Source: an uncultured Verrucomicrobiota bacterium (lineage in GTDB: Bacteria > Verrucomicrobiota > Verrucomicrobiia > Limisphaerales > J093). From it: DNA of 46,506 nt. Made by a program: the position numbers and the translations under genes. The notes beneath the pieces were generated by a model that saw nothing but the letters and a program-made list of their open reading frames with translations, ran no database searches and was not told the DNA's origin. The DNA lies in assembly GCA_964413865.1 (NCBI GenBank), contig CAYPUR010000001.1, forward strand, positions 44,730 to 91,235, written 5' to 3'. Shown piece after piece: positions 8,411 through 32,405 of this stretch (the stretch's first letter is position 1; each line of letters opens with the position of its first letter).

Positions 8411-10552
8411 ATGAAAACAACCGAACAGGATCCGCCTCGGACATCCGTCGGCGAGGGCGCTGACGCGCGCAAGCGAGGCCCATGCGCTCCCCGGAATCAG
8501 CCGGCGCGGTTCGTGTCCGAGGCAGCGGCAGCAAGCCCGGCTCCCGCAACCGACGCAGTTGACACGGCGGGAGAACGCCCGCTCGGTCTGCCCACGCCCC
8601 AGGAAATCCGGGAGCGCGTGGTAGAGGTCATGCGGCAGGAGTATCCGCCAGCCGAAGCGGGTGGGGACGCCGTGGCCAATCGGACAGTCCAACAGCCGGC
8701 GGCCACCCACGCCAACGCCTCGCCCCCAACTCACCACTCCGCGCGATCGGTGGAGGGGACGGCGGCCGACGTGATCCCCGCCCGCATGCTCAACGAGTTT
8801 GTCTATTGCCCGCGGCTGTTCTACTACGAGTTTGTCGAAGGCGTGTTTGTGGAGAATGCGGACACGCTGCGCGGCAAGGGACTGCATCGGCGGGTGGACA
8901 CAGGCAACGGCGCCCTGCCGCCGGCGGCCGCAGTGGCCGACACCGGCGAACCATCAACCATCAACCACGAACCATCAACCGACGACGTCATTCATTCCCG
9001 TTCGGTGCAGATGGGCTCGGCCCGCCTGGGCGCCACGGCGAAGATGGACCTGATCGAGGCCCGCACGGGCGGTGACGACCTCTTCCGCGCGCTCGAAGTG
9101 TGCCCGGTCGACTACAAGGCGGGAGCGCCCAGGGAAGGAGACGATGGCAACGAACTGTGGGATGCCGACAAGATGCAGCTTGGGGTGCAGGCGCTGATCC
9201 TCCGCGACAACGGCTACACCTGTTCCGAGGGCGTCATCTATTACCGCGCCACCAAGCAGCGGGTGCGGCTGCCGGTCACGCCGGAGCTCGAGGCGTGGGT
9301 GAGAGACAACATCGCCCGGGCCCGCACGGTCGCTGCCGGCGCCATGCCGCCCCCTCTGGCCAATTCGCCCAAGTGCCCGCGCTGTTCGCTGGTCACGGTC
9401 TGCCTGCCCGATGAGACGCGGTTCCTTAAGACCGCGGCGGGGGCGGAGACCGCGGAGGACGTCCGCAGGCCAACCCCGCCGCCCTGTCCTACGCCGCGTC
9501 GGCTGATTGCGGCGCGGGACGACAGCCGCTCGCTCTACCTGAACACGCCGGGTCTGCGGGTGGGGCGGAAAGGCGAAGTGCTGCAAGTCAAGGAAGAGCG
9601 GGCCCTGCTCGACGAGGTGCGGCTGAAAGACGTTTCGCACGTGGCGCTGTTCGGAAACATCCAGATCTCGACGCAGGCCGTGCAGGCCCTCTGCGAGGCG
9701 GAGATCCCGGTCACGTACTTCTCGATGGGCGGCTGGTTCTACGGCATCACCCGCGGGCACGAGCTGAAGAACGTCTTCCTGCGCATCGAGCAGTTCCGTC
9801 GGGTCCGCGACGACGCCTTCGCGCTCGAACTGAGCCGGCAGTTCGTCCACGGCAAGATCCGCAATCACCGCACCATGCTCATGCGGAATCACCTCGAACC
9901 GCCGCCCGGCGTGATCACCCAACTCAAGCACCTCGCGGACAAGGCGCTGACGGCCACCAGCCGTGAGGAACTCCTCGGCCTCGAAGGCGCCGCCGCCGCC
10001 GCGTACTTTGCCGAGTTCAACGGGATGCTCAAAACCGCCGATGAACTGGCCGACGCGCCTGATCCCTGGGATGGTCAGTTGAGGTTCAACTTCGAGCATC
10101 GAAACCGGCGTCCGCCGACCGATCCCGTCAACGCGCTGCTGTCGCTCGGTTACAGTCTCCTGGCAAAGGACTGCACCGTCGCGGCTCTGGCAGTGGGGTT
10201 CGATCCGTACGTCGGTTTCTACCACCAACCGCGTTTTGGCCGTCCCGCCCTGGCCCTGGACGTCATGGAAGAGTTTCGTCCGCTGGTGGCCGAGTCCGTC
10301 GCCCTGGCCTGCATCAACAACCGCATCCTGAGTGTGAAGGACTTCGTCCGGGCCGGCGACGCGGTGAATCTCACCGCTGCCGGACGCAAACGCTACTTCC
10401 AGGCCTACGAACAGCGCCTGACCGCCCTGCTCACCCACCCGCTGTTCGACTACAAAGTCAGCTACCGCCGCGCCCTCGAACTCCAGATGCGCCTCCTGGC
10501 CAAAACCCTCACCGGCGAAATCGCCGAGTACGTGCCCTTGATGACCCGGTGA
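8411..10552 (+). CDS. cas1: CRISPR-associated Cas4-Cas1 fusion protein (type I-G/I-U style)
   Basis: The Cas4 part has MLNEFVYCPRLFYYEF, the RecB-like DLIE/VDYK motifs and the Cys cluster KCPRCSLVTVC. The Cas1 part has YLNTPGLRVGRKGEVLQV, LFGNIQISTQAVQAL, NALLSLGYSLL and GFYHQPRFGRPALALDVMEEFRP. The start is uncertain (ORF opens at 8318; ATGs at 8411 and 8630). Confidence 0.9.
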   Translation: MKTTEQDPPRTSVGEGADARKRGPCAPRNQPARFVSEAAAASPAPATDAVDTAGERPLGLPTPQEIRERVVEVMRQEYPPAEAGGDAVANRTVQQPAATHANASPPTHHSARSVEGTAADVIPARMLNEFVYCPRLFYYEFVEGVFVENADTLRGKGLHRRVDTGNGALPPAAAVADTGEPSTINHEPSTDDVIHSRSVQMGSARLGATAKMDLIEARTGGDDLFRALEVCPVDYKAGAPREGDDGNELWDADKMQLGVQALILRDNGYTCSEGVIYYRATKQRVRLPVTPELEAWVRDNIARARTVAAGAMPPPLANSPKCPRCSLVTVCLPDETRFLKTAAGAETAEDVRRPTPPPCPTPRRLIAARDDSRSLYLNTPGLRVGRKGEVLQVKEERALLDEVRLKDVSHVALFGNIQISTQAVQALCEAEIPVTYFSMGGWFYGITRGHELKNVFLRIEQFRRVRDDAFALELSRQFVHGKIRNHRTMLMRNHLEPPPGVITQLKHLADKALTATSREELLGLEGAAAAAYFAEFNGMLKTADELADAPDPWDGQLRFNFEHRNRRPPTDPVNALLSLGYSLLAKDCTVAALAVGFDPYVGFYHQPRFGRPALALDVMEEFRPLVAESVALACINNRILSVKDFVRAGDAVNLTAAGRKRYFQAYEQRLTALLTHPLFDYKVSYRRALELQMRLLAKTLTGEIAEYVPLMTR

Positions 10553-10749
10553 ACCACGGCGTAGACTCGCGCGCGATCAAGCCTATGGAAACACAACCGT
10601 GAAGCGCGCCTGGCTCGAACCGTTCACCTGGCCGGTCTACGTGCCGTGAGCACCAAGCGCCTCCTGCAGCAGGTCCGCCGCAATCCCATGCGTTTCCCGC
10701 CTCACTATTGCTTCCATTGCTTCCAGTTCTCCGCCGGGGAGTTCGCCGC

Positions 10750-10776
10750 TTTGAGGTCGCACATTGCGACCTCAAA
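10750..10776. promoter_or_regulatory. Perfect 12-bp inverted repeat with a 3-nt loop (TTTGAGGTCGCA-CAT-TGCGACCTCAAA)
   Basis: Read directly. It lies 198 nt after the cas4-cas1 stop and 128 nt before the mini-array. It could be a terminator hairpin or a protein operator. No T-tract follows it. Confidence 0.5.
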
Positions 10777-10904
10777 CCCTGGCCCGGGCGGACGGCGCTG
10801 CGCTCCCCGGGCCTTCACGGCACCCGGCACCCTGATGGCCGCCACCAAAAAGTTACGACCCTACCCCCGTATTTGTCCCACCCCCTGTGCCAGAATTGCC
10901 GCCA

Positions 10905-11016
10905 CATGAAACGAGCCGAAGCGTGGTCGAAAGGCGCCGCTCCAGAAGTTGTCTCGGATGAGACAATCTCCGATACCATGAAACGAGCCGAAGCGTGGTC
11001 GAAAGGCGCCGCTCCA
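10905..11016. CRISPR. Mini-CRISPR array: two identical 40-nt direct repeats flanking one 32-nt spacer
   Basis: CATGAAACGAGCCGAAGCGTGGTCGAAAGGCGCCGCTCCA occurs at 10905-10944 and 10977-11016, a 72-nt period. The spacer is GAAGTTGTCTCGGATGAGACAATCTCCGATAC (10945-10976). It sits inside the cas locus, 83 nt upstream of the csb1 start. With only two copies, repeat/spacer boundaries may be off by a few nt. Transcription orientation is undetermined. Confidence 0.6.
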
Positions 11017-11099
11017 CCGCGCGGGAGTGTGGGTCTTGGAGACTCACCTCGACACCCGGTTGGCGGCCGCTGCGGTGCCGAACACCCAAGGAACGAACT

Positions 11100-12389
11100 A
11101 TGACCAAGCCTGAAACCCTGACTCTGCAAGTCCTTCAACAAGCCGTGGCCGGAACAGCCGCCGCCTTTCGCTGCCGTCGCCGTCTCCAGCCTGGTGGCGG
11201 CGAGGGCGACAAGGTCTTTCCACCCACCTTCGCCGGTGCTGTCTATGCCGTAGAGCAACGACGCGTGCCCGGCCGACCCGACCCCGTGACGTGCGTCGTG
11301 CTCGACACCGTCCAATCCCAGGCCAACCGCATGGAACTGGCCTTGCAAGAGGCGGTGAACGCCGGCCGACTCCAGCTTCCGCTCATCGAGGTGGACTTCA
11401 GCCCGTGGTCGCCGACGGGCGACAAGGAAGCCGGCGACCAAGCCGGGAAACTCATCGAGAGGATTGGCAGAATCACCAGCCTCCAGGTCCCGCACCGCCT
11501 GGCTGACGCCATCCTGCGCGACAGTGAGGTGGACGGCCAACCGTTTCGCAAGTCACCCGCAGCGAAAAGCCTGAACGAAGTCAGCCCGCTTAATGCCACG
11601 CCCCTGTACAAGCTGTGTCCCACCTCTTTGACCTTCGGCATGTGGGACTCCACCGGCCCCAAAGGTGGCCTCGGCGCCAAGTTCGAGCGGGCCGTGGTCT
11701 CGGAGGTGGTGGGCGTAGGCACCGCTGTCGGTGACCTGCTGCGCGGCGTGCGCCGGGACCCGCTGGAAATCCGGGCTGCGGTCAAGGTCCTCAAGGCTGC
11801 GGATAAGAGCTGGAGCGTCGCCGACCCGAGGGCCAAAGGGGCGGTGCCCCCGTCCAAAGTCAACCACAGCAGCGTTCCGTTCCCAGAGCAACGAACCGAG
11901 AAGACCGACGAAAACCACTACGCTGGTGTTACCCTCGAATACGCCGAGCAGATCACCACGCTCTCGCTCATCGTCCTGCGACGGCTCCGCTTTCCACTCG
12001 AACGTAAGGAAGACGAGAAAGACGAGGAGTATTGCAGACGTTGCACGGAAGCCGATGGCGCCGCCCGCACAGTCTTGGCCGCTCTCGGTCTGTGCGCGGC
12101 CACGCTGGCCTTCGAAAACGGCATGGGCCTGCGCTCGCGCTGTCTGCTCTGGCCCGACGGGCCGATGACCTGGGAGCTGCTCGCCAAGCCTGGCGAAGCG
12201 CCGCAGCCCTATTCCCTCACCGCGGATGAAGCCGTGGCCATCCTCACCGACGCCGCCGAGAAGGCAGCCGCTACCGGTCTGGCCTGGGCGACCGCCCCCC
12301 TGCGTTTGCAGCCCCAGCCCAAGCTCGTGGAGTTGGTGCGCCTCAGCCAGGTCGAAGCCACCAAGGAAGCCGGCGAAGGAGCCGACTGA
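11100..12389 (+). CDS. csb1: Type I-G/I-U CRISPR-associated RAMP protein Csb1 (Cas7u/Cas7g)
   Basis: Starts MTKPETLTLQVL at ATG 11100 with AAGGAA upstream. Family-typical motifs: GDKVFPPTFAG, VLDTVQSQANRME, LQVPHRLADAILRDS and CPTSLTFGMWDSTG. Confidence 0.9.
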   Translation: MTKPETLTLQVLQQAVAGTAAAFRCRRRLQPGGGEGDKVFPPTFAGAVYAVEQRRVPGRPDPVTCVVLDTVQSQANRMELALQEAVNAGRLQLPLIEVDFSPWSPTGDKEAGDQAGKLIERIGRITSLQVPHRLADAILRDSEVDGQPFRKSPAAKSLNEVSPLNATPLYKLCPTSLTFGMWDSTGPKGGLGAKFERAVVSEVVGVGTAVGDLLRGVRRDPLEIRAAVKVLKAADKSWSVADPRAKGAVPPSKVNHSSVPFPEQRTEKTDENHYAGVTLEYAEQITTLSLIVLRRLRFPLERKEDEKDEEYCRRCTEADGAARTVLAALGLCAATLAFENGMGLRSRCLLWPDGPMTWELLAKPGEAPQPYSLTADEAVAILTDAAEKAAATGLAWATAPLRLQPQPKLVELVRLSQVEATKEAGEGAD

Positions 12390-12390
12390 C

Positions 12391-13875
12391 ATGCTCACCC
12401 TCGGCATCCGCTATCTCAACGGCTTTGTGGTTGCCTCTCACGGCCGGCATGAGCTGCTCGAGTGGCCGCCGCATCCGGGCCGCTTCTTCATGGCCCTGGT
12501 GGCCGCCCACTACGAAACCGGCGCGGACCCAGCCGAGCGTGAGGCGCTGCTCTGGCTGGAGCGCCTGCCCGAGCCGCCCGAGGTTCACGCGCCGGAGGCC
12601 TGTCCGCGCACCACCGTCACCCAATACGTGCCGGTGAATGACAAGACGGGGCCTTCCACCGCGCCGATGCACTCGTTGCCTCTCACCCGAGACCGCAAGG
12701 ACCGCACTTTCGCCCGCGCCTGGCTGACCGGCGACACCGCCTTTGTGCACTGGCCGCAGGCCGACCCACCACCGGGCATCCGCGCTGCCTTGGAAGCTCT
12801 CTGCGCTAAGACTACGCGCATCGGACATTCGTCCTCCCTGGTCCAGGTGTGGCTGGCGGACCAGCCGTCGGCCTCCCTGCCTCGGTGGGTGCCCGATTCC
12901 GCTCGCGCCACCATCCCGATGCGCGTACCTGTGCCCGGCACCTTGCGGGCGCTGGACGAGGACTTCCAGCAGCGCCACGAGCGGGCACGTGATCCGCGCG
13001 ACCAATCCAAATCCCGCTCCCCGGTCGCGGGCAAACGCCCCTTGGCCGAGCACGGCTACGCGCTCGCGGCCGAGGCCGCAGCTCCCGCTTCGGCCCCTGG
13101 CACGGTCTTCAGCCCGCATTTGCTCCTGTTCGATCTGGAGCGACTAGACGGGCCGTATCGGCACCTCGACGTGGCTTGCACCCTTGCCCTCACCGCACGT
13201 TGGCGCGAAGCCCTCACCAGCCACGCCAACGACCTCTCTGCGGAGGCCCAGCAGGTCATCTGCGGCCACACGCCCGACCACCTGCATTTGGAACGACCGC
13301 ACCTGGCCTTCCTGCCACTGGCGGTCGTGGGGCACCCGCACGCTGACGGTCACCTGCTGGGCGCGGCGCTCGCTTTGCCCGAAGCCATGCCCGCCTCCCT
13401 CCGGCAGGAGGTTCTCCGGGCCGCTGGCCGCGCCCGAGAGCTTGTGCTCGGCCGGCTCGGCAAATGGGCGTTGGGACCCGTCACCATGCCGCGCCCGCCC
13501 TTAGCCTTGCGCCCCGACACTTGGACGGCGTACCCGGCAGGTGCCACCCATTGGGCCACCGTCACGCCCGTGGCCTTTGATCAGCATCCCAAGGCCAAAG
13601 ATAAAGCCGCCTATCAGCAGGAAGCCGCCGAGTTGATTGCCGCCGCCTGCGGGCGCATTGGCCTGCCACACCCGCGCGAGGTGATCCTCACGCCCGTGTC
13701 CGCCCATCTGGGCGCGCCGCCGGCACACGCCTACCCGCGCCTGCGCCGCAAGGACGGCACCGAACGGCGGCACACCCACGCCATCCTGGCGTTTGCCGAG
13801 CCGGTGCGCGGACCGCTTCTGCTGGGCGCGGGGCGGTATCGGGGCTATGGAGTTTTCAGGCCGATGATCGCTTGA
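12391..13875 (+). CDS. csb2: Type I-G/I-U CRISPR-associated protein Csb2 (Cas5/Cas6-like fusion)
   Basis: The ATG at 12391 is 1 nt after the csb1 stop. N-terminus MLTLGIRYLNGFVVAS...WPPHPGRFFMALVAA. C-terminal glycine-rich RAMP loop FAEPVRGPLLLGAGRYRGYGVFRP. Confidence 0.9.
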   Translation: MLTLGIRYLNGFVVASHGRHELLEWPPHPGRFFMALVAAHYETGADPAEREALLWLERLPEPPEVHAPEACPRTTVTQYVPVNDKTGPSTAPMHSLPLTRDRKDRTFARAWLTGDTAFVHWPQADPPPGIRAALEALCAKTTRIGHSSSLVQVWLADQPSASLPRWVPDSARATIPMRVPVPGTLRALDEDFQQRHERARDPRDQSKSRSPVAGKRPLAEHGYALAAEAAAPASAPGTVFSPHLLLFDLERLDGPYRHLDVACTLALTARWREALTSHANDLSAEAQQVICGHTPDHLHLERPHLAFLPLAVVGHPHADGHLLGAALALPEAMPASLRQEVLRAAGRARELVLGRLGKWALGPVTMPRPPLALRPDTWTAYPAGATHWATVTPVAFDQHPKAKDKAAYQQEAAELIAAACGRIGLPHPREVILTPVSAHLGAPPAHAYPRLRRKDGTERRHTHAILAFAEPVRGPLLLGAGRYRGYGVFRPMIA

Positions 13876-13921: not shown

Positions 13922-14872
13922 ATGAACACCTCCATGGACCCGAAGCTCCACCACCAAGCCGTGCAGCGCGCCCTCGCCCTGGGCCGGGGCACCGATCCCA
14001 CCGCCCTCCCGGAACTCGCGCGGCTCATCACCTTTCCCTCCGCGGAAATCCGCCGCTTGGCCGCTTCAGCCATTGGCAAACTCGCCTCCTTCGGCGCTGA
14101 GCCGGTCGCTGCCGTCCAGGCCCTGGCTCCCGTGGCGCTGCGCGATCCGCACCCCCAGGCCCAGCAATACGCGCTGAAGGCCCTTAAGCTCTATGGCGCG
14201 GACGCCCGCCACCATCTCCACGATCTCGACGACTTGGCCGTCAACGAGCGCGCCAAAGATTACATCCGCCGCGCCGCCGATTCCGCAGCCCAAGCGATCC
14301 GAGACGCTCTCCGCCTCGAACAGGAGCACGCCCAGCATAAGTGCGTCCGCTGCGGTCGCGAAGTCACGCCCGACGAACACACCCGCAGCCAGCAAGCCTT
14401 CCAACGCACCTTCTGCGACGCCTGCTTCGACCAGGTCTTCCTCGACCGCCGCAACTTCGACACCAAGGTCGAGCTGCAAAAAACCATCCTCGCCCAAGCC
14501 GGCACCCTGGTGCAGTCCGACGGCGAACGGCTCATTGCCGACTGGCTCGCCGCCCACCACATCGCTTACCGGTACGACGAGCGCTTCCGGATCCTCAGCG
14601 GCCACGCCATCCGCCCCGATTTCTACCTGCCCGAGCTCGACCTCTATATCGAATACTGGGGCCTGGACACCGCTGACTACCAGATCGGCATGCTCAAGAA
14701 ACAGCAACTCTATCAGCAGGAAGGCAAACGTCTCATTTCGCTCCGTCCCGCCGACAAGCCGCGTCTCGATGCAGTGCTCCGCTCCAAACTCGCTCTTTTC
14801 GGCTACCATGTCCCGCCCGCCACACCATCCGGCTTTCGCAAGCCGCCCCCACCGGGCGTCGGCGAGCCCTAG
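13922..14872 (+). CDS. Uncharacterised cas-embedded protein: HEAT-like repeats + CxxC...CxxC zinc ribbon + PD-(D/E)XK-like nuclease domain
   Basis: 316 aa from ATG 13922 (an alternative TTG lies at 13895). HEAT-like helices: SAEIRRLAASAIGKLASFG, DPHPQAQQYALKALKLYG. Zinc ribbon: CVRCGREV...FCDACF. C-terminus: GERLIADWLAAHHIAYRYDERF...IRPDFYLPELDLYIEYWG...KKQ. It is same-strand and tightly spaced between csb2 (46-nt gap) and cas3 (13-nt gap). Confidence 0.7.
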   Translation: MNTSMDPKLHHQAVQRALALGRGTDPTALPELARLITFPSAEIRRLAASAIGKLASFGAEPVAAVQALAPVALRDPHPQAQQYALKALKLYGADARHHLHDLDDLAVNERAKDYIRRAADSAAQAIRDALRLEQEHAQHKCVRCGREVTPDEHTRSQQAFQRTFCDACFDQVFLDRRNFDTKVELQKTILAQAGTLVQSDGERLIADWLAAHHIAYRYDERFRILSGHAIRPDFYLPELDLYIEYWGLDTADYQIGMLKKQQLYQQEGKRLISLRPADKPRLDAVLRSKLALFGYHVPPATPSGFRKPPPPGVGEP

Positions 14873-14885
14873 CGAGTCAGCCCTC

Positions 14886-17861
14886 ATGCTTCCCGACTTC
14901 TCCACCTTCTTCCACACCCTCTGGGCCTGCGAGCCTTTCCCCTGGCAAACCCAGCTCGCCGACCGTGTGGCCACGGCCGCCTGGCCCGACGCCGTTGACC
15001 TCCCTACCGCAGCCGGCAAGACCGCCTGTCTGGACATCGCCATCTGGGCGCTCGCCGCCCAGGCCGAACGGCCCCGCGGCCAGCGCTCCGCCGCCCGACG
15101 CATCTGGTTCGTCGTGGACCGCCGCATCGTGGTGGACGAAGCCTTCGATCGCGCCAAGTGCCTCGCGAACAAACTGGCCACCGACTCCGCCCCGGCCATT
15201 CGCACCGTGGCCGAACGCCTTTTGGACCTCCGCGGCATGCCCTCACGCGAGCGCCCGCTTGCCGTCGGCCGCCTCCGCGGCGGCGTGCTGCGCGATGACC
15301 ACCGGGCACGCATCCCCTCCCAGCCCGCCATCATCACCAGCACCGTGGACCAACTCGGCTCGCGTTTGCTTTTCCGCAGCTACGGCGACAGCCAGCTCGC
15401 CGCGCCCATCTATGCCGGCCTCGCGGCCAACGACAGCCTCATCCTGCTGGACGAAGCCCATTGCGCCGTGCCCTTCCTCCAAACCCTTCGCGCCGTCCGT
15501 CGCTTTCGCTCCGCCAGATGGTCGGAGGTGGGAAACGACACTCCGTTTCACGTCGTCGTTCTCTCCGCCACCCCGCCCGCCGCAGCCGATGGAGAACCAC
15601 TTGAGGCCTTTCCCGCTCCAGGCGAACGCGCCGGGGCGCTGGACCACCCGCTCCTCCAACGACGGCTCAATGCCTGCAAACCCGCCGTCCTTGAGTCCGT
15701 GCACGACGAGGAGGCACTCACCAGGCGCCTAACCGAGACTGCCGCGGACTTTGCCCGCGCCGGCAAACGCCGCGTCGGCGTCATCGTCAACCGCGTCGGC
15801 CGCGCCACGGACATCGCGGGGTCGCTCCGCGCCGAAGCCCTGAAAGGCCGCGCCTCGGACGAAGGCCCCGCCTTCGATGTCGCCCTCCTCACCGGCCGTA
15901 TCCGGCCCTTCGAACGCGACCTCCTGGTCGGTCCCGGCACGTCCCTGCACCGCGTGCTCCGCGCCACCAACCCCGAGGAGCCTCCGCGTCCCCTCATTCT
16001 TGTCGCGACTCAGTGCCTCGAAGTCGGCGCCGACTTCAGCTTCGACGCCCTCGTCACCGAATGCGCCAGCCTCGATGCCCTCCGCCAGCGCTTCGGCCGC
16101 CTCAACCGCCTCGGCCTGCCCGGCGACGCACCCGCGCTCATCGCTGTCGCCCGGTCCCAGCTCAAAGACCCCGACCCCATCTATGGCGACGCCTTGAAGG
16201 CCACCTGGGAATTCCTCCAAAGCCGGGCCACCGCCGAGCGCAGCGCGAAAGGCAAAGAAACTCGCCGCGTGGACTTCGGCATCCACGCCCTCACCCCGCT
16301 CCTGCCCGTCGGCAACGATCGCCTCCCGTTGCTCGCCCCGGCCCCCGACGCGCCCATCCTCCTGCCCGCGCACCTGGATCTCCTTTGCCAGACATCCCCG
16401 TCGCCGCACCCCGATCCGGACATCGCCCCATTCCTCCACGGCAAGGGCCGCGGCCAGCCAGAAGCCCGTGTCGTCTGGCGCTGCGACCTCGACCCACAGC
16501 GGCCCGAAGACTGGCCCGAAATCCTCAGCCTCTGCCGGCCCGTCGTGGGCGAGATGTTGCCCGTGCCTCTCTTCCGTCTTCGCCAGTGGATGCGCGACCG
16601 CGCCAGCGCCGACCTCACCGGCGACGTGCAAAGCTCGGCGCCCGCGACCGACACTCCACCAGTCCGAGCCGCCGCCACGCCCTTCCTGCTCTGGCGCGGG
16701 CGCGAACATTCCGAAGTCCTCACCGACCCGGCGCGCATCCCGCCCGGCGCCGTGGTCATCCTGTCCGTGCCCGCGAGTCCGGTCGAAGCCGACGCCCTAG
16801 GCCAAGCCTTGCGCGAGCAGGCCCTAGGCCCTGGCCGCTTCGACCTCTGGGAACTCGCCTGGCAACAGACCGGCCGCCCCGCCAGCCTGCGCCTGCACCG
16901 CGCCAGCCTCGCCCCCTGGCTGCCGACCTGCCGGCCCCTGGCCGGCCTCTTGGACCTCGCCGGGCGCGACGACTGGACCCTCGCCGAACTCCACGACGCC
17001 CTTGCCGCCGTCCGCGACTGGACGCCGGAAGACGGCGCACCCTCGCCACTGGACCTCTGGCTGCGCGACCTGTTCGCCGCGGTGGCCCACGTTCGCAAAC
17101 GCGACGTGGCCGTTCATCCCGGCGGTGGCCTCGTGCTCCGCGCGCCCGCTGCCGTCCCTGCGGAAGAACCCGACCTTTTCGCCGACGAAGACGACCAGTG
17201 GAGCGAAGCACCGGGCGAAATTCCGCTTACCGACCACACCGAGCAAGTCGAGCAGACCGTCGGGGTCCTGGCCCGCTCCTGCCTCGACGAAGCCACCGCA
17301 GCGCTGCTCCAGGCCGCCGCCCGCTGGCACGACGCCGGCAAACTCGACCCCCGCTTCCAGGTCCTCCTGCGTGGCGGACTCCCGGACCTGGACCATCCGC
17401 TCGCCAAATCCCCCGACCTGCCGCGCTCCCAGGATCAGGCCCGTCGTAACCGCGAAGCCGCCGGCCTGCCCGAGGTCTTTCGCCACGAAATGCTCTCCCT
17501 GCAACTGGCTGAACGCGTCGCCGCCTCCTCCCTCGGCCCGGAGGACCGCGAACTGTTCCTCCATCTGATCGCCAGCCACCACGGCCGCGCCCGGCCCTTT
17601 GCGCCCGTGTGTGAAGACCCCGTGCCGCCGCCGGTTGAAAGCCATCTCGGCGGCATGCCTATCTCCCTCACGGCCACCGATCGCCAGGCCCTCACCCCAC
17701 CGCACCGGCTCGATTCCGGCGTGAGCGACCGTTTCTGGCGGCTCGTCCGCCGCTTCGGCTGGTGGGGCCTGGCCTACCGCGAAGCTATCCTACGCTTGGC
17801 CGACTGGCACGCCAGCGCCCATCCAAAAACCTCGTCCGCCGCCCCCGCCTCCCAGCCATGA
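14886..17861 (+). CDS. cas3: Type I-G/I-U Cas3 helicase with C-terminal HD nuclease domain
   Basis: Starts MLPDFSTFFHTLW at ATG 14886. Motif I is PTAAGKTA and the DEAH box is ILLDEAHC. The C-terminal HD-type motifs are LTDHTEQV, ARWHDAGKLD, FRHEMLS and IASHHG. The ORF-track start at 14193 overlaps the preceding gene and is rejected. Confidence 0.9.
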   Translation: MLPDFSTFFHTLWACEPFPWQTQLADRVATAAWPDAVDLPTAAGKTACLDIAIWALAAQAERPRGQRSAARRIWFVVDRRIVVDEAFDRAKCLANKLATDSAPAIRTVAERLLDLRGMPSRERPLAVGRLRGGVLRDDHRARIPSQPAIITSTVDQLGSRLLFRSYGDSQLAAPIYAGLAANDSLILLDEAHCAVPFLQTLRAVRRFRSARWSEVGNDTPFHVVVLSATPPAAADGEPLEAFPAPGERAGALDHPLLQRRLNACKPAVLESVHDEEALTRRLTETAADFARAGKRRVGVIVNRVGRATDIAGSLRAEALKGRASDEGPAFDVALLTGRIRPFERDLLVGPGTSLHRVLRATNPEEPPRPLILVATQCLEVGADFSFDALVTECASLDALRQRFGRLNRLGLPGDAPALIAVARSQLKDPDPIYGDALKATWEFLQSRATAERSAKGKETRRVDFGIHALTPLLPVGNDRLPLLAPAPDAPILLPAHLDLLCQTSPSPHPDPDIAPFLHGKGRGQPEARVVWRCDLDPQRPEDWPEILSLCRPVVGEMLPVPLFRLRQWMRDRASADLTGDVQSSAPATDTPPVRAAATPFLLWRGREHSEVLTDPARIPPGAVVILSVPASPVEADALGQALREQALGPGRFDLWELAWQQTGRPASLRLHRASLAPWLPTCRPLAGLLDLAGRDDWTLAELHDALAAVRDWTPEDGAPSPLDLWLRDLFAAVAHVRKRDVAVHPGGGLVLRAPAAVPAEEPDLFADEDDQWSEAPGEIPLTDHTEQVEQTVGVLARSCLDEATAALLQAAARWHDAGKLDPRFQVLLRGGLPDLDHPLAKSPDLPRSQDQARRNREAAGLPEVFRHEMLSLQLAERVAASSLGPEDRELFLHLIASHHGRARPFAPVCEDPVPPPVESHLGGMPISLTATDRQALTPPHRLDSGVSDRFWRLVRRFGWWGLAYREAILRLADWHASAHPKTSSAAPASQP

Positions 17862-18994
17862 GCGCGCCGCCTCAACCACTCGACCTCCCCGCCCTGGACG
17901 GCACCAACCCGCTCGGCTTCCTCGCCGCCCTCGGCACGCTCGCCGTGCTCTCCGAGACCGACCCCGACCTCCGCCTCGGCTGGCGCCGCGGGCCGAGATG
18001 GACGGCGTTTCTGTCGAGGCTCAGGCCTTTGACCGAGTCAGGCCTGGCGAGGTTTCTGGGGCGAAAGCTCCGAGGCAAGCCGGTCACCGCGAGCGCGGCC
18101 GTGCAATGCACGGCTGCGAGAAAGGCGCTAGATCGGGCGAAGAAAGCCCGGGGAGACGCCGAGAAAAGAGTCAAAGCGCAGAAACTACGCGGCAAGGAGC
18201 GCGAGTCCGCGTGGCAGGCCGACGTCGAACCGCTGGTCCGCCACTTCAACGAGGCAAGGCAGGGTTACCTCCGTGCGCTGAAGTCCGTGAGTCCCTCAGC
18301 GGAGCTGGCCTTGGGCGACCGCCCCGATTGCACCAGCGAAGAATTCCGCGGCCACAGTGGCGAGGCCCTGCTCGCCGCCGGCCTCAAGAGCCGGGGCGTC
18401 CCCGACCTTCTTATGGCCTTCGGCTGCGAGGCCAGCCCGAATGACGGACAGCGCATCGCCCCCACACCCTTTTGCTTCATCACAGGCAGTGGCCATCAGT
18501 GGTTCCTCAAGACGGCGCGGGATTTGATGGCCGAGGCCTCTGTTGCCGGGTTCCATAAAGCCATATTCCAGTCCTGGCGCTACTCCGACCCCGGCCTCTC
18601 CATGCGCTGGGATCCGGTCGAGGACACCCGCTACGCCCTGCGCCTGGACGACCCCGGCCCGGCCGGCGTGAGCACCGTCTGGATGGCCAACCTTCTCGCT
18701 TACCGCGCGCTGGCCTTCTTCCCCTGCGCCTGGGATGGCCGCGCCTCGGCCGCCGCCGGTTGGACCCACGACCGTGAGCATCCCTGCTTCACCTGGCCCT
18801 TGTGGGAAACACCCCTCACCGCTGACACCGTGCGCTCCTTGCTGCGTCACCCCGCGTTCGGTGAACCCGACCTTGCAGACTGGAAAGCCGAACTCCGCGC
18901 CCGGGGCGTGTCCGCCATCTACCGATCCCGCCGCATCCAGGTCGGCAGCGGCACCAACTACAAAGTGAACTTCACCCCAGCCCAGTCCGTTTGA
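17858..18994 (+). CDS. Putative type I-G/I-U large-subunit protein (Cas8u/Cas8g; Csx17/Csb3-like), short form (378 aa)
   Basis: The ATG at 17858 overlaps the cas3 stop (ATGA). The N-terminus LDGTNPLGFLAALGTLAVLSE...LGWRR resembles the Csx17-type N-terminal motif. Its position in the operon fits a large subunit. The family assignment is from memory of motifs only. Confidence 0.55.
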   Translation: MSAPPQPLDLPALDGTNPLGFLAALGTLAVLSETDPDLRLGWRRGPRWTAFLSRLRPLTESGLARFLGRKLRGKPVTASAAVQCTAARKALDRAKKARGDAEKRVKAQKLRGKERESAWQADVEPLVRHFNEARQGYLRALKSVSPSAELALGDRPDCTSEEFRGHSGEALLAAGLKSRGVPDLLMAFGCEASPNDGQRIAPTPFCFITGSGHQWFLKTARDLMAEASVAGFHKAIFQSWRYSDPGLSMRWDPVEDTRYALRLDDPGPAGVSTVWMANLLAYRALAFFPCAWDGRASAAAGWTHDREHPCFTWPLWETPLTADTVRSLLRHPAFGEPDLADWKAELRARGVSAIYRSRRIQVGSGTNYKVNFTPAQSV

Positions 18995-19021: not shown

Positions 19022-19189
19022 ATGCGCACTACTTACCCCGTCTGCTACGACATCACCGACGACAATCGGTTGCGCCGTGTTTTCAAGGGCTGCAAGAACT
19101 ACGGCGATCATCTGCAATGCTCGGTGTTCGAATGCGATCTGTCCGTGGCCGAGCGCGTCCATCAGTCGCTGGTGAAGTTCTCGGACTAG
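19022..19189 (+). pseudogene. cas2: Truncated cas2 (55 codons; N-terminal half only)
   Basis: MRTTYPVCYDITDDNRLRRVFKGCKNYGDHLQCSVFECDLSVAERVHQSLVKFSD* carries the Cas2 beta1 motif with its Asp and the LQ-SVFEC motif. It stops at about 55 aa, whereas Cas2 is normally about 90-100 aa. At under 60 aa it is absent from the ORF track. Confidence 0.75.
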
Positions 19190-19339
19190 GCCCCGGTCTT
19201 CACCGGCAACGCCGGCGTGGCCTTCAGACTGACGTTCGCCCAACCGGTCAGCGGCCTGCTCGCCCTGGGCTACGGCGCCCACTTTGGACTGGGTTTGTTT
19301 GTGCCGCTTGACCGATGCGGGGGCGCGGTGCCAGCCTGA
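19190..19339 (+). pseudogene. Csb2-like C-terminal remnant fused directly behind the truncated cas2
   Basis: The frame starting at 19190 reads APVFTGNAGVAFRLTFAQPVSGLLALGYGAHFGLGLFVPLDRCGGAVPA*. This parallels the intact Csb2 C-terminus LAFAEPVRGPLLLGAGRYRGYGVFRP at 13780-13875. Confidence 0.5.
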
Positions 19340-19348
19340 AAGCACAAC

Positions 19349-19834
19349 ATGGATATCGACAACATCGACCAGCAGCGCCTGATCGAGAAACTCCGGCGGA
19401 TCGAGTCGCTGTTCGCTGACCGGGCGGCCACGGCGGGGGAGAAGGCCGCGGCCAGTGAGGCGCGGGAGCGGATCCGTCAGCGCCTGGCTGCGTCGGCTGA
19501 GGCCGATCCGCCCGTCGAGTACACCTTCGCCCTGCGCAATCCGTGGTCTTACCGCCTGTTTGTCGCGCTGCTGCGCCGCTATCAGATCCGGCCCTACCGT
19601 TACGCCCGCCAGCGCCACACCACCGTCGTGGCCCGCCTGCCGGCCCGGTTCGTGAACGAGACCCTCTGGCCGGAGTTCACCGAACTGGACCGCACGCTCC
19701 ATCAGTACCTCACCGAGGAGACCAACCGCGTCATCGCCGAGACCATCAATCGCGACACGTCCGAGGTCGAAGTCCGCTCGGGCCAGGCCCTGCCTGCCGG
19801 CCCTGTATTCGCTGAACCCGACCAAGGTCAATAA
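19349..19834 (+). CDS. Hypothetical protein, DUF2786-like organisation (161 aa)
   Basis: N-terminal helix QQRLIEKLRRIESLFADRAATAGEKAAASEARERIRQRL, followed by W..L...L.....-type core NPWSYRLFVALLRRYQIRPY...VVARLPARFVNETLWPEFTELDRTL. The assignment is tentative. Confidence 0.45.
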   Translation: MDIDNIDQQRLIEKLRRIESLFADRAATAGEKAAASEARERIRQRLAASAEADPPVEYTFALRNPWSYRLFVALLRRYQIRPYRYARQRHTTVVARLPARFVNETLWPEFTELDRTLHQYLTEETNRVIAETINRDTSEVEVRSGQALPAGPVFAEPDQGQ

Positions 19835-19847
19835 CTCGAGGGGAAGG

Positions 19848-20344
19848 GGAAATGGAGAATGGAAAATGGAGAAGGAGGGGGGAGTGGGCGGTTTAGGGAT
19901 TATGTTCGGCGCGACGACGGATCGTGGTGAAGATGGCGACCAATTGACTGGCTTCGTCCAACGCCGCGGTGAGGGCCGGGGTGTCGGCGACCCCCTCCGC
20001 GGCAATCAGTTCGATCCAATAGGTGGTTTCGTCGGCTTCCTTGAGGCAATCGCCGATCTTCGCGATGAACTCGGCCTTGCTCCGGGCCTGGTCGCTCTCG
20101 CGGTAGTTGGCCCCAACCGACGTTCCGGCGCGCAACATCTGCCGTCCGAGAGTCTGGGCGAGCACGCCACGATCCAGCGACACATAGAGCCGGACGATCT
20201 GTCGGGCAAAGCGGAGAGTGCGCTCCCGCAAGTCCCGCGGGCGCCCGTGCCCCTGCCCCCTCGGCTCTGTTCCTTCGTTCATGGCTTCCACCTCCTCACC
20301 CACAAGTAACACGCCCTTTCTCCATTTTCCATTTTCCATTCTCC
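19848..20344. mobile_element. Four-helix-bundle gene cassette bounded by imperfect inverted repeats built from ATGGA(G/A)A units
   Basis: The left arm GGAAATGGAGAATGGAAAATGGAGAA (19848-19873) pairs with the right arm TTCTCCATTTTCCATTTTCCATTCTCC (20318-20344). The reverse complement of the right arm shares AATGGAAAATGGAGAA with the left arm. The cassette lies between two cas2 5' fragments. Confidence 0.55.
19893..20282 (-). CDS. Four-helix-bundle protein (23S rRNA intervening-sequence protein family)
   Basis: Starts MNEGTEP at ATG 20282. Motifs FARQIVRLY, LGRQMLRAGTSVGANYRES, AEFIAKIGDCLKEADETTYWIELI. Confidence 0.85.
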   Translation of the reverse strand: MNEGTEPRGQGHGRPRDLRERTLRFARQIVRLYVSLDRGVLAQTLGRQMLRAGTSVGANYRESDQARSKAEFIAKIGDCLKEADETTYWIELIAAEGVADTPALTAALDEASQLVAIFTTIRRRAEHNP

Positions 20345-20356
20345 ACTTCACTTCCC

Positions 20357-20497
20357 ATGCGCACGACCTACCTCGTCTGCTACGACATTACCGACGACAA
20401 GCGGTTGCGGCGCGCCGAGGCACAGGACAGAGGCGGCGACCGCCAGCGTTGTGGCGAGGAAGGCATGTGTGTTCGTGGAGTGTGGGAACTGGACTGA
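20357..20497 (+). pseudogene. cas2: Second cas2 5' fragment (first ~19 codons only, then unrelated sequence)
   Basis: MRTTYLVCYDITDDKRLRR matches the start of the 19022 copy (about 85% nt identity over about 57 nt), then diverges after about 20413. The frame closes at 20495-20497. Confidence 0.65.
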
Positions 20498-20521
20498 GCG
20501 GCATGAATCAACAACGCCGGG

Positions 20522-30894: not shown

Positions 30895-31276
30895 ATTTCA
30901 CACTCCGGCGGTGCACGCGCCAGTCAGACTCCGCAAGGTGACAGCCATGCGGGCTAGGATAGCAAAACCGCGCCCGAGTGGAGGGATGGAATCGGGCAAC
31001 AGAGTGTCGCCGCACTCGCGAGGTTTCGGAAACGCTCCGAACCTCGTTTTTCCCTGTGCGGGCGCGGTTTTGCCACAGCCCGGGTTTTTTTGTCATCTTC
31101 CCGGTCGTGAGAAATCCGGCTAGAGTTACTCCCTTTGTGAAATCTGTGCCAAACGAGTCAAGTTCCTGCGCCGCGCAGCGGCGCCTCTTAGCGAGGCGTC
31201 GGGCGCCGGTGATGGTGGTGGCCGCCCAGCGCAGACGAGTTGTTTACGCGCCGCCTCGGTCTGTGGCGGAGCCTCG
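30884..31276 (-). repeat. Copy B of the modular intergenic repeat (head hairpin, body with 15-bp inverted repeat, terminator-like tail)
   Basis: Head arms TAGCCCGCAT (30885-30894) and ATGCGGGCTA (30947-30956). Body inverted repeat GCAAAACCGCGCCCG (30962-30976) and CGGGCGCGGTTTTGC (31059-31073). Tail hairpin GCGCCGC-GCA-GCGGCGC (about 31169-31185). An extra 88-nt segment is bounded by TTAGCGAGGC/GCCTCGCTAA (31188-31280). Confidence 0.8.
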
Positions 31277-32004: not shown

Positions 32005-32405
32005 GCGCGCATTTCTGACTAACTTCTGAAGAACGCGGAGCCGATGTCATCGAAAGGTGCACGCATGCGCGCTAGCCAAGCAAAACCGCGCCGGGTTGGA
32101 GGGAGGGGCGAAGGCAACGGGGTGTCGGTTTGCGACTCCGTGTTCCCGCTCGACCAGACTCTGGTTTTCTTCTGTCCCGGCGCGGTTTTGCCAGAGCCCG
32201 TGTTTTTTTCTCATCTCTCCGGTCGTGAGAAATCCGGGCTAGAGTTACTTCCTTTGTGAAATCTGTACCAAACGAGTCAAGTTCTTGCGCCGCGCAGCGG
32301 CGCCTCGCTAACGATACTTCTCCGCGTTGAACCCACGGGCCGGCGCCAAGGCGCCTACAAAGTCTGACTGTCATGTGCACAGACGGGGTGTGAAAGATGC
32401 GGGTT
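32005..32405 (-). repeat. Copy C of the modular repeat (head, body, tail), plus a duplicated vapC 3' remnant and an inverted partial head
   Basis: Head arms GCGCGCAT (32005-32012) and ATGCGCGC (32065-32072). Body inverted repeat GCAAAACCGCGCCGGG and CCCGGCGCGGTTTTGC. The tail, about 93% identical to copy B, runs through 32306. The vapC 3'-end remnant CTAACGATACTTCTCCGCGTTGAACCCACGGGCC is at 32308-32341. The inverted partial head ...GTGTGAAAGATGCGGGTTAG ends at 32405 and overlaps the Dus-family stop codon. Confidence 0.8.

Follow-up and report, generated by a model that had tools for sequence, protein, structure and literature searches.

A 72-bp insertion resembling a two-repeat, one-spacer CRISPR unit in the csb1 leader of a verrucomicrobial type I-G locus: a possible scar of off-target spacer integration

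The duplicated unit upstream of csb1

A stretch of 46,506 nucleotides (nt) from an uncultured Verrucomicrobiota bacterium (GCA_964413865.1, contig CAYPUR010000001.1; the window in what follows) contains a locus identified as a type I-G CRISPR-cas system (short palindromic repeats, clustered and regularly interspaced, and their associated genes). Between its fused cas4g/cas1g gene, which ends 350 bp upstream, and csb1, whose ATG follows after 83 nt, lies a unit on the strand of the cas genes, in which two identical 40-nt segments enclose a 32-nt insert. An initial annotation had taken this unit for a fixed single-guide mini-array with a regulatory or addiction function; it was right about the coordinates, about the unusual position inside the cas locus and, as a k-mer periodicity scan confirmed, about this being the only repeat-spacer-like unit in the 46.5 kb. 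Seen against related loci, the unit is a recent, lineage-specific 72-bp insertion in the 5' leader of the csb1 operon, and off-target integration of a spacer is the origin that we favour, with moderate confidence.

Repeat finding and sequence search located the 40-mer CATGAAACGAGCCGAAGCGTGGTCGAAAGGCGCCGCTCCA exactly twice in the window, the two copies agreeing at 40/40 positions, with starts 72 nt apart, and shuffled controls giving no match (0/100). The unit is composed as follows.

10905..10944, + strand: copy 1 of the duplicated 40-nt leader segment, homologous to the single copy of the relatives
10945..10976, + strand: 32-nt insert GAAGTTGTCTCGGATGAGACAATCTCCGATAC, the spacer-like part, missing in all four related lineages; 36 nt long when 4 nt from the duplicated ends are counted in
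10977..11016, + strand: copy 2 of the duplicated 40-nt leader segment, continuing into the conserved downstream leader

The insert has a GC content of 47%, as against 62-66% in the surrounding sequence, and contains the 7-bp palindrome TTGTCTC-GGAT-GAGACAA that had been singled out as unusual for an acquired spacer. The palindrome is there, but its unusualness is only mild: the insert folds with -10.7 kcal/mol (z = -2.4), and 7 of 200 shuffles fold equally well. Local alignment against shuffles detected no similarity of the insert to either flank on either strand, and none was found to the rest of the window. By the same alignments the notion of a diverged flank copy, left by an old tandem duplication, was rejected; because the insert is unrelated to either flank, a simple tandem duplication or a local templated repair is a poor fit.

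The 40/32/40 structure is real. Logan contigs from four separate sequencing runs (L036-L039) all terminate at 10934, and contigs from two other runs (L001, L002) both begin at 10987. A 40-nt sequence occurring twice between different flanks should produce just these break points (k-1 = 30), and on this ground an assembly artefact is dismissed.

The csb1 leader in four related lineages

Relatives were found through homologues of Csb1 and of Cas4/Cas1, and contigs with the same cas4/cas1-csb1 junction fell into four lineages. Source-named Cas4/Cas1 relatives, at about 69% identity, belong to Verrucomicrobia, Limisphaerales and similar groups.

L034/35: Cas4/Cas1 91% identical; locus 89-95% identical at the nucleotide level
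L030-33: Cas4/Cas1 90% identical; nucleotide identity of the L030 locus within the same 89-95%
L003/4: Csb1 78% identical
L005-8: Csb1 71% identical

At the same site all four lineages (4/4) have the homologue of the 40-mer once, and in the alignment the sequence found 3' of copy 2 follows it directly. The 32-nt insert was searched at the homologous junction of L034 and L030-33, whose flanks are about 90% identical in nucleotides, and of L003 and L006, and none of them has it. Relative to every outgroup, the window is thus longer by 72 nt, that is, by one additional 40-mer and 32 nt of new sequence. Since all four lineages keep a single copy, one insertion is the more parsimonious assumption, the alternative being three or four precise deletions. 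The flanks of the unit differ by about 9-10% from L034 while its two copies are still identical throughout, and the insertion must therefore be much younger than the split from L034. A fixed regulatory or addiction mini-array of the CreTA/CreR kind, as envisaged in the initial annotation, finds no support in these junctions, which carry one copy and no insert.

Judged by its sequence context, the 40-mer is ordinary csb1-leader sequence, bordered by two further elements.

10865..10894, + strand: motif CCCCGTATTTGTCCCACCCCCTGTGCCAGA resembling a promoter or 5'-untranslated region (5'-UTR), directly upstream of the duplicated segment, with an A-run before it
11012..11041, + strand: conserved leader hairpin CTCCA-CCGCGC-GGGA-GTGTGG-GTCTT-GGAG, across the right end of copy 2

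The upstream motif is kept before csb1 in L034, L030, L006 and L003. In pattern scans of genome and metagenome contigs the same motif also appeared 8-14 nt before the ATG of several unrelated, non-cas open reading frames (ORFs), in metagenome-assembled genomes of Verrucomicrobia as well as in environmental and metagenome contigs. Written as a pattern of about 30 nt, CCCCGTAnnTGTCC(C/A/G)ACCC(C/T)CTG(T/C)GC after an A-run, it was seen in L016 (6021-6061), L017 (3615-3655), L018 (4390-4426), L019-L027 and L029. A sigma-70 consensus was sought at the motif in the window and is not present. The motif looks like a lineage-specific promoter or 5'-UTR element; a CRISPR leader or a degenerate first repeat was considered for it and rejected, since the same motif precedes unrelated non-cas ORFs.

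The hairpin at 11012-11041 recurs in five lineages (RNAalifold), with invariant outer CUCC/GGAG pairs and an inner stem that is mostly kept. By eye it might pass for a degenerate solo repeat (CTCC-CCGCGC...TTGGAGAC vs CTCT-CCGCGC...GTTGAAGC), a candidate that the covariance model described below did not support. Leader RNA folds compared with and without the 72-nt insertion gave no informative difference.

The clade's repeat and the fate of the array

The repeat proper to this clade can be read from the relatives. In L030-33 a normal array follows cas2, with the 36-nt repeat CTCTCCGCGCTCACGTGAGCGCGGCCCCGTTGAAGC (13 repeats in L030) and spacers of 35-38 nt, and the more distant L009 and L015 have the same repeat family, GTTTCCGCGG...CATTGAAGC. 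The 45 unique reference spacers measure 34-41 nt, with a mode of 37, and the repeat-spacer units 71-74 nt. The 72-nt period of the window unit is accordingly typical of type I-G, and the initial annotation had noted that a repeat of 36-37 nt plus a spacer of 35-36 nt would produce it; the 40-nt repeat and the 32-nt unique part are off, none of the reference spacers (0/45) being 33 nt or shorter. In the I-G system of Thioalkalivibrio sulfidiphilus the repeat has 36 nt, the mature CRISPR RNA (crRNA) 72 nt and the protospacer-adjacent motif (PAM) is TTN; there Csb2 binds a 7-bp repeat hairpin, and its cut, 4 nt past the hairpin, leaves a handle of 8 nt (PMC9638904).

The duplicated 40-mer bears no resemblance to the clade's 36-nt hairpin repeat (...CCGCG-stem-loop-CGCGG-CCYC-RTTGAAGC), nor is it a degenerate copy of CTCTCCGCGCTCACGTGAGCGCGGCCCCGTTGAAGC. 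Its fold is no more stable than those of shuffles (z = +0.35 for the + strand and -0.97 for the - strand). A covariance model made from the repeats of L030, L009 and L015 had no match at 10800-11100 and nothing below E = 0.1 across the window, and an Rfam search found no CRISPR-DR family. With neither a covariance nor an Rfam match and with no significant hairpin, the 40-mer cannot be counted among this system's repeats, and processing by Csb2, which had been proposed to cut the operon's own leader, is not expected; the unit is probably not processable by Csb2, and a mature crRNA would not be expected from it.

The genes of the locus are arranged as follows.

8630..10552, + strand: cas4g/cas1g fusion, the adaptation integrase, apparently intact (NCBIfam NF049935, 706 bits vs a cutoff of 560; start taken from called protein P0121)
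10646..10909, + strand: ORF6N-domain pseudogene remnant (Pfam PF10543, E = 6.8e-10, partial match), decayed in relatives too; the first few bases of copy 1 include its stop codon
11100..18994, + strand: effector operon from csb1 to the Cas3-extension gene, effector genes intact
11100-12389, + strand: csb1/cas7g
12391-13875, + strand: csb2
13922-14872, + strand: HEAT-repeat gene
14886-17861, + strand: cas3g
17858-18994, + strand: Cas3-extension family gene
19022..20409, + strand: broken cas2 region; the post-cas2 CRISPR leader and canonical array of the relatives are missing
19022-19189: N-terminal fragment of cas2, 55 amino acids (aa)
about 19190-19330: remnant like the C-terminus of Csb2
19349-19834: ORF of 161 aa
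19893-20339, - strand: 23S_rRNA_IVP-family gene
20358: second cas2 start; homology to the cas2 of relatives ends at 20409

When window positions 20410-20520 are set against L030 12786-13887, homology is seen to break off within cas2, and the next gene is melibiase-like and on the minus strand. The window has lost its true array along with the CRISPR leader and most of cas2. The initial annotation had named a normal array with another repeat as a possible real partner of these cas genes; such an array does exist in the closest relatives, at the post-cas2 site, and that region is deleted in the window.

Several further observations concern the same genes. The broken-cas2 cassette (within 19022-20497) is flanked by inverted heptamer tracts of the GGAGAAT/GGAAAAT type, and in L034 this cassette is also present, there with a second cas2 that is intact and with a CRISPR leader. 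Within the ORF6N pseudogene, a 12-bp inverted repeat, perfect and with a gap of 3 nt, occupies 10750-10776; in relatives the ORF6N copy has decayed further and is accompanied by an intact 67-aa ORF, which is deleted in the window. The place of the HEAT-repeat gene between csb2 and cas3 is taken in L030, L034 and L003 by a 23S_rRNA_IVP-family gene, and the segment 13922-14872 has no nucleotide homology to these three. The middle of csb1 (11528-12390) gives no blastn match, or 71-82% identity, with L034 and L030, in a locus otherwise 90-95% identical, and this suggests recombination or diversifying change in Cas7g. L003, the closest Csb1 relative, presents a composite CRISPR region (1-21254), with a second, divergent I-G-like effector module upstream of cas2-cas4/cas1 and a type III module downstream (Cas10, Csm2, RAMPs, that is, repeat-associated mysterious proteins, and a Cas_APE2256-family gene); an array was looked for within 10 kb on either side of its csb1, and none was found. 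Elsewhere in the window, near-identical 32-mers GAACTTGACTCGTTTGG(C/T)ACAGATTTCACAAA on the minus strand at 31134-31165 and 32253-32284, about 1.1 kb apart, appear to be a local dispersed repeat.

Origin of the insertion and comparison with known systems

How might such a unit have come about? In the reading to which we give about an even chance, it is a scar of off-target (ectopic) spacer integration by Cas4/Cas1-Cas2, a natural "neo-CRISPR". The I-G adaptation complex, made up of Cas4/Cas1 and Cas2, would have cut ordinary leader DNA in a staggered manner about one repeat-length apart, a spacer-sized foreign fragment would have been joined between the cuts, and filling of the gaps would then have duplicated the target, giving 40-mer, 32-nt insert and 40-mer; alternatively, the product may be divided into a 36-bp duplication and a 36-nt spacer that has 4 nt in common with the flank. 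Duplication and insert together measure 72 nt, equal to the I-G repeat-plus-spacer unit. Cas1-Cas2 is expected to leave a target duplication of 36-40 bp around an insert of 32-36 bp; insertion sequences and miniature inverted-repeat transposable elements produce short target-site duplications and much longer inserts. We know of no repair or mobile-element mechanism that typically yields an unrelated 32-bp insert within a perfect duplication of 40 bp. The apparently intact cas4/cas1 gene beside the site and the lower GC content of the insert also speak for an integration. The unit would probably be co-transcribed with csb1 from the promoter-like motif upstream of it, and at present it is most likely an inert scar, at most a proto-array, in a locus that would later have lost most of cas2 and the real array. 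A CRISPR-type interpretation, as the initial annotation had it, hence survives in so far as an origin from the CRISPR machinery fits the anatomy best; a conserved regulatory mini-CRISPR does not.

A precedent exists in the work of Nivala, Shipman and Church (2018), according to the accounts given in PMC7054753, PMC6698737 and bioRxiv 10.1101/148544: off-target integration created new repeat-spacer-repeat units, or neo-CRISPRs, with E. coli type I-E as the system and circumstantial natural cases in two other species.

A number of observations weigh against integrase origin. The exact duplication has 40 rather than 36 nt, and the insert, at 32 nt, is shorter than any of the 45 canonical spacers; the split into 36 and 36 requires a chance identity of 4 nt with the flank (about 2%), and otherwise both the stagger and the spacer are atypical. 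No similarity is evident between the integration site and the canonical leader-repeat junction. Cas2 is now truncated in this genome, and an integration would have to predate its loss. The palindrome, too, would be a mild oddity in a random spacer. Protospacer searches came back empty as well: IMG/VR viral contigs matched none of the queries taken from the insert (a 29-mer searched exactly, two 20-mers, three patterns allowing codon wobble), blastn against phage and plasmid records returned chance-level matches only, and the related loci that were fetched contain no protospacer. Finally, this is a single event, read from its anatomy alone.

The most serious competitor, possible though clearly the less probable account, is an insertion unrelated to CRISPR, either the repair of a break that took up filler DNA and duplicated a long stretch, or the scar of an integrated element that was mostly deleted and left a duplicated 40-bp attachment core, with at most a longer 5' leader as its effect. 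The interval between cas4/cas1 and csb1 is indeed decaying, as the ORF6N pseudogene and the deletion of the relatives' 67-aa ORF illustrate, and both the negative protospacer searches and lengths of 40/32, unlike the canonical 36/35-38, point the same way. Against this stand the lack of a typical repair or mobile-element route to such a product, the insert without a template in nearby sequence, and the coincidence that would be needed to place exactly 72 nt beside an I-G integrase gene.

Doubtful, by comparison, is the birth of a new array caught at the one-spacer stage, in which the I-G integrase would have seeded the unit in the effector leader around the time the canonical array was lost, and the unit, transcribed with csb1, would act either as a guide or in feedback on cas expression, the 40-mer being a repeat in the making.

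It is improbable that the unit is a functional mini-array, providing one crRNA-like guide that regulates the cas genes or belongs to an addiction module (CreA/CreR-like), or the sole guide left after loss of the main array. Inside the cas locus and downstream of a promoter-like motif it would probably be transcribed, its 72-nt period suits type I-G, and the locus, whose effector genes are intact, retains no other repeat-spacer unit. It is, however, not conserved, being missing in the four related lineages, and its 40-mer is recognised neither by the clade covariance model nor by the Rfam CRISPR-DR models and has no significant hairpin, while Csb2 binds the repeat hairpin (PMC9638904). Nor is there a target: partial matches of the insert, the check suggested along with the guide hypothesis, were sought in the 46.5-kb window including the regions upstream of cas genes, with or without a PAM, and none was found, the best being a scattered 19/32; in the four related loci, too, the insert gave chance-level matches only. 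The 40-mer likewise has no partial target in the window, and its core was not found in viral contigs.

A small upstream ORF offers a further account, and a quite improbable one. The frame runs from the ATG at 10906 through both copies to the TGA at 11101-11103, overlapping the csb1 ATG as ATGA, and the insertion would be an in-frame expansion of it by 24 codons, kept because it preserves a frame translationally coupled to csb1. L034 has the same frame and overlap, and at other genes it is real start codons that come after the upstream motif. On the other hand, the ATG is ATA in L030, L003 and L006 have another frame relative to csb1, the GC content at third codon positions is 0.53 vs 0.78-0.84 in neighbouring genes, and 5 of 6 substitutions between the window and L003 in the first 13 codons alter the amino acid; moreover, the account explains tolerance of the insertion more than its origin.

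Very improbable is a phase-shifted partition, in which the hairpin-bearing insert with the next 8 nt (GTTGTCTCGGATGAGACAATCTCCGATACCATGAAAC, 37 nt) would be the repeat, the 32-nt GAGCC...CTCCA segment a spacer present twice, and the single copy of the relatives a promoter-driven crRNA-like RNA: the 37-mer does have GTT at its start, a 7-bp stem and, at its end, CATGAAAC, which is like the clade's ...C(A/G)TTGAAGC, 37 + 35 makes 72, and the 32-nt segment is strongly different in L006 while the flanking motif is conserved, but CATGAAAC belongs to the ancestral leader and not to the insert, the upstream "repeat" is the general promoter/5'-UTR-like motif also seen at non-cas genes, the spacing from hairpin to end is 18 nt vs 12 nt in real repeats, the covariance model has no match, the exact 29-nt core of the 37-mer was not found in viral contigs, and the inner 32-nt segment (10913-10944) has no target in any of five loci (the window and four related ones), where it gave chance-level exact runs of 10 nt without an adjacent TTN, such as the 10-mer at 8650-8659.

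If the insertion is indeed the work of the integrase, an environmental type I-G system offers here a natural, datable case of off-target spacer integration, which would illustrate the proposed first step in the origin of a new CRISPR array, and would show that such events can hit the cas operon itself. If its origin was another, a decaying cas locus has simply gained an ordinary strain-specific indel. A caution for annotation also follows: a perfect two-repeat, one-spacer unit beside cas genes need not be a regulatory crRNA-like RNA; ordinary leader DNA can contain such a unit as a scar, and the comparison of close relatives tells the two apart.

Among known systems, the canonical I-G arrays (T. 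sulfidiphilus, PMC9638904; L030-33, L009 and L015) share with the unit the 72-nt period and the strand of the cas genes. Their repeats have 36 nt, a GC-rich hairpin of 7-8 bp, a 4-nt linker and an 8-nt handle (...CGCGGCCCC GTTGAAGC), all of which the 40-mer lacks, and they stand after cas2 and a CRISPR leader and contain many spacers, 34-41 nt long, in contrast to one unit upstream of csb1. The crRNA-like mini-arrays of the CreTA/CreA and CreR type are known from type I-B of haloarchaea and, in the survey by Shmakov et al. (2023), from types I-E, I-F1, I-D and V-A (PMC10120712; PMC9458426). Like the unit, they consist of two repeats and one spacer inside a cas locus, near the promoter of a cas operon; they are distinguished by degenerate cognate repeats, by conservation among related loci and by a spacer seed of at least 10 bp to a nearby promoter next to a PAM (PMC10120712, PMC9458426), and none of these three features (0/3) is found in the unit, the target search covering the window.

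The neo-CRISPR units of Nivala et al. differ from the present case in that the latter is natural, belongs to a verrucomicrobial-type I-G system with a Cas4/Cas1 fusion, is sited in the leader of the effector operon itself, and has a duplication of 40 instead of 36 nt, an insert of 32 nt, a putative role of the integrase, a cas2 that is no longer intact and an array that is lost. In other respects the two are alike: a spacer-sized, apparently foreign insert lies within a perfect, approximately repeat-length duplication of ordinary DNA that is not a repeat, relatives have the target once, the added length equals one repeat-plus-spacer unit, and an adaptation gene adjoins the site.

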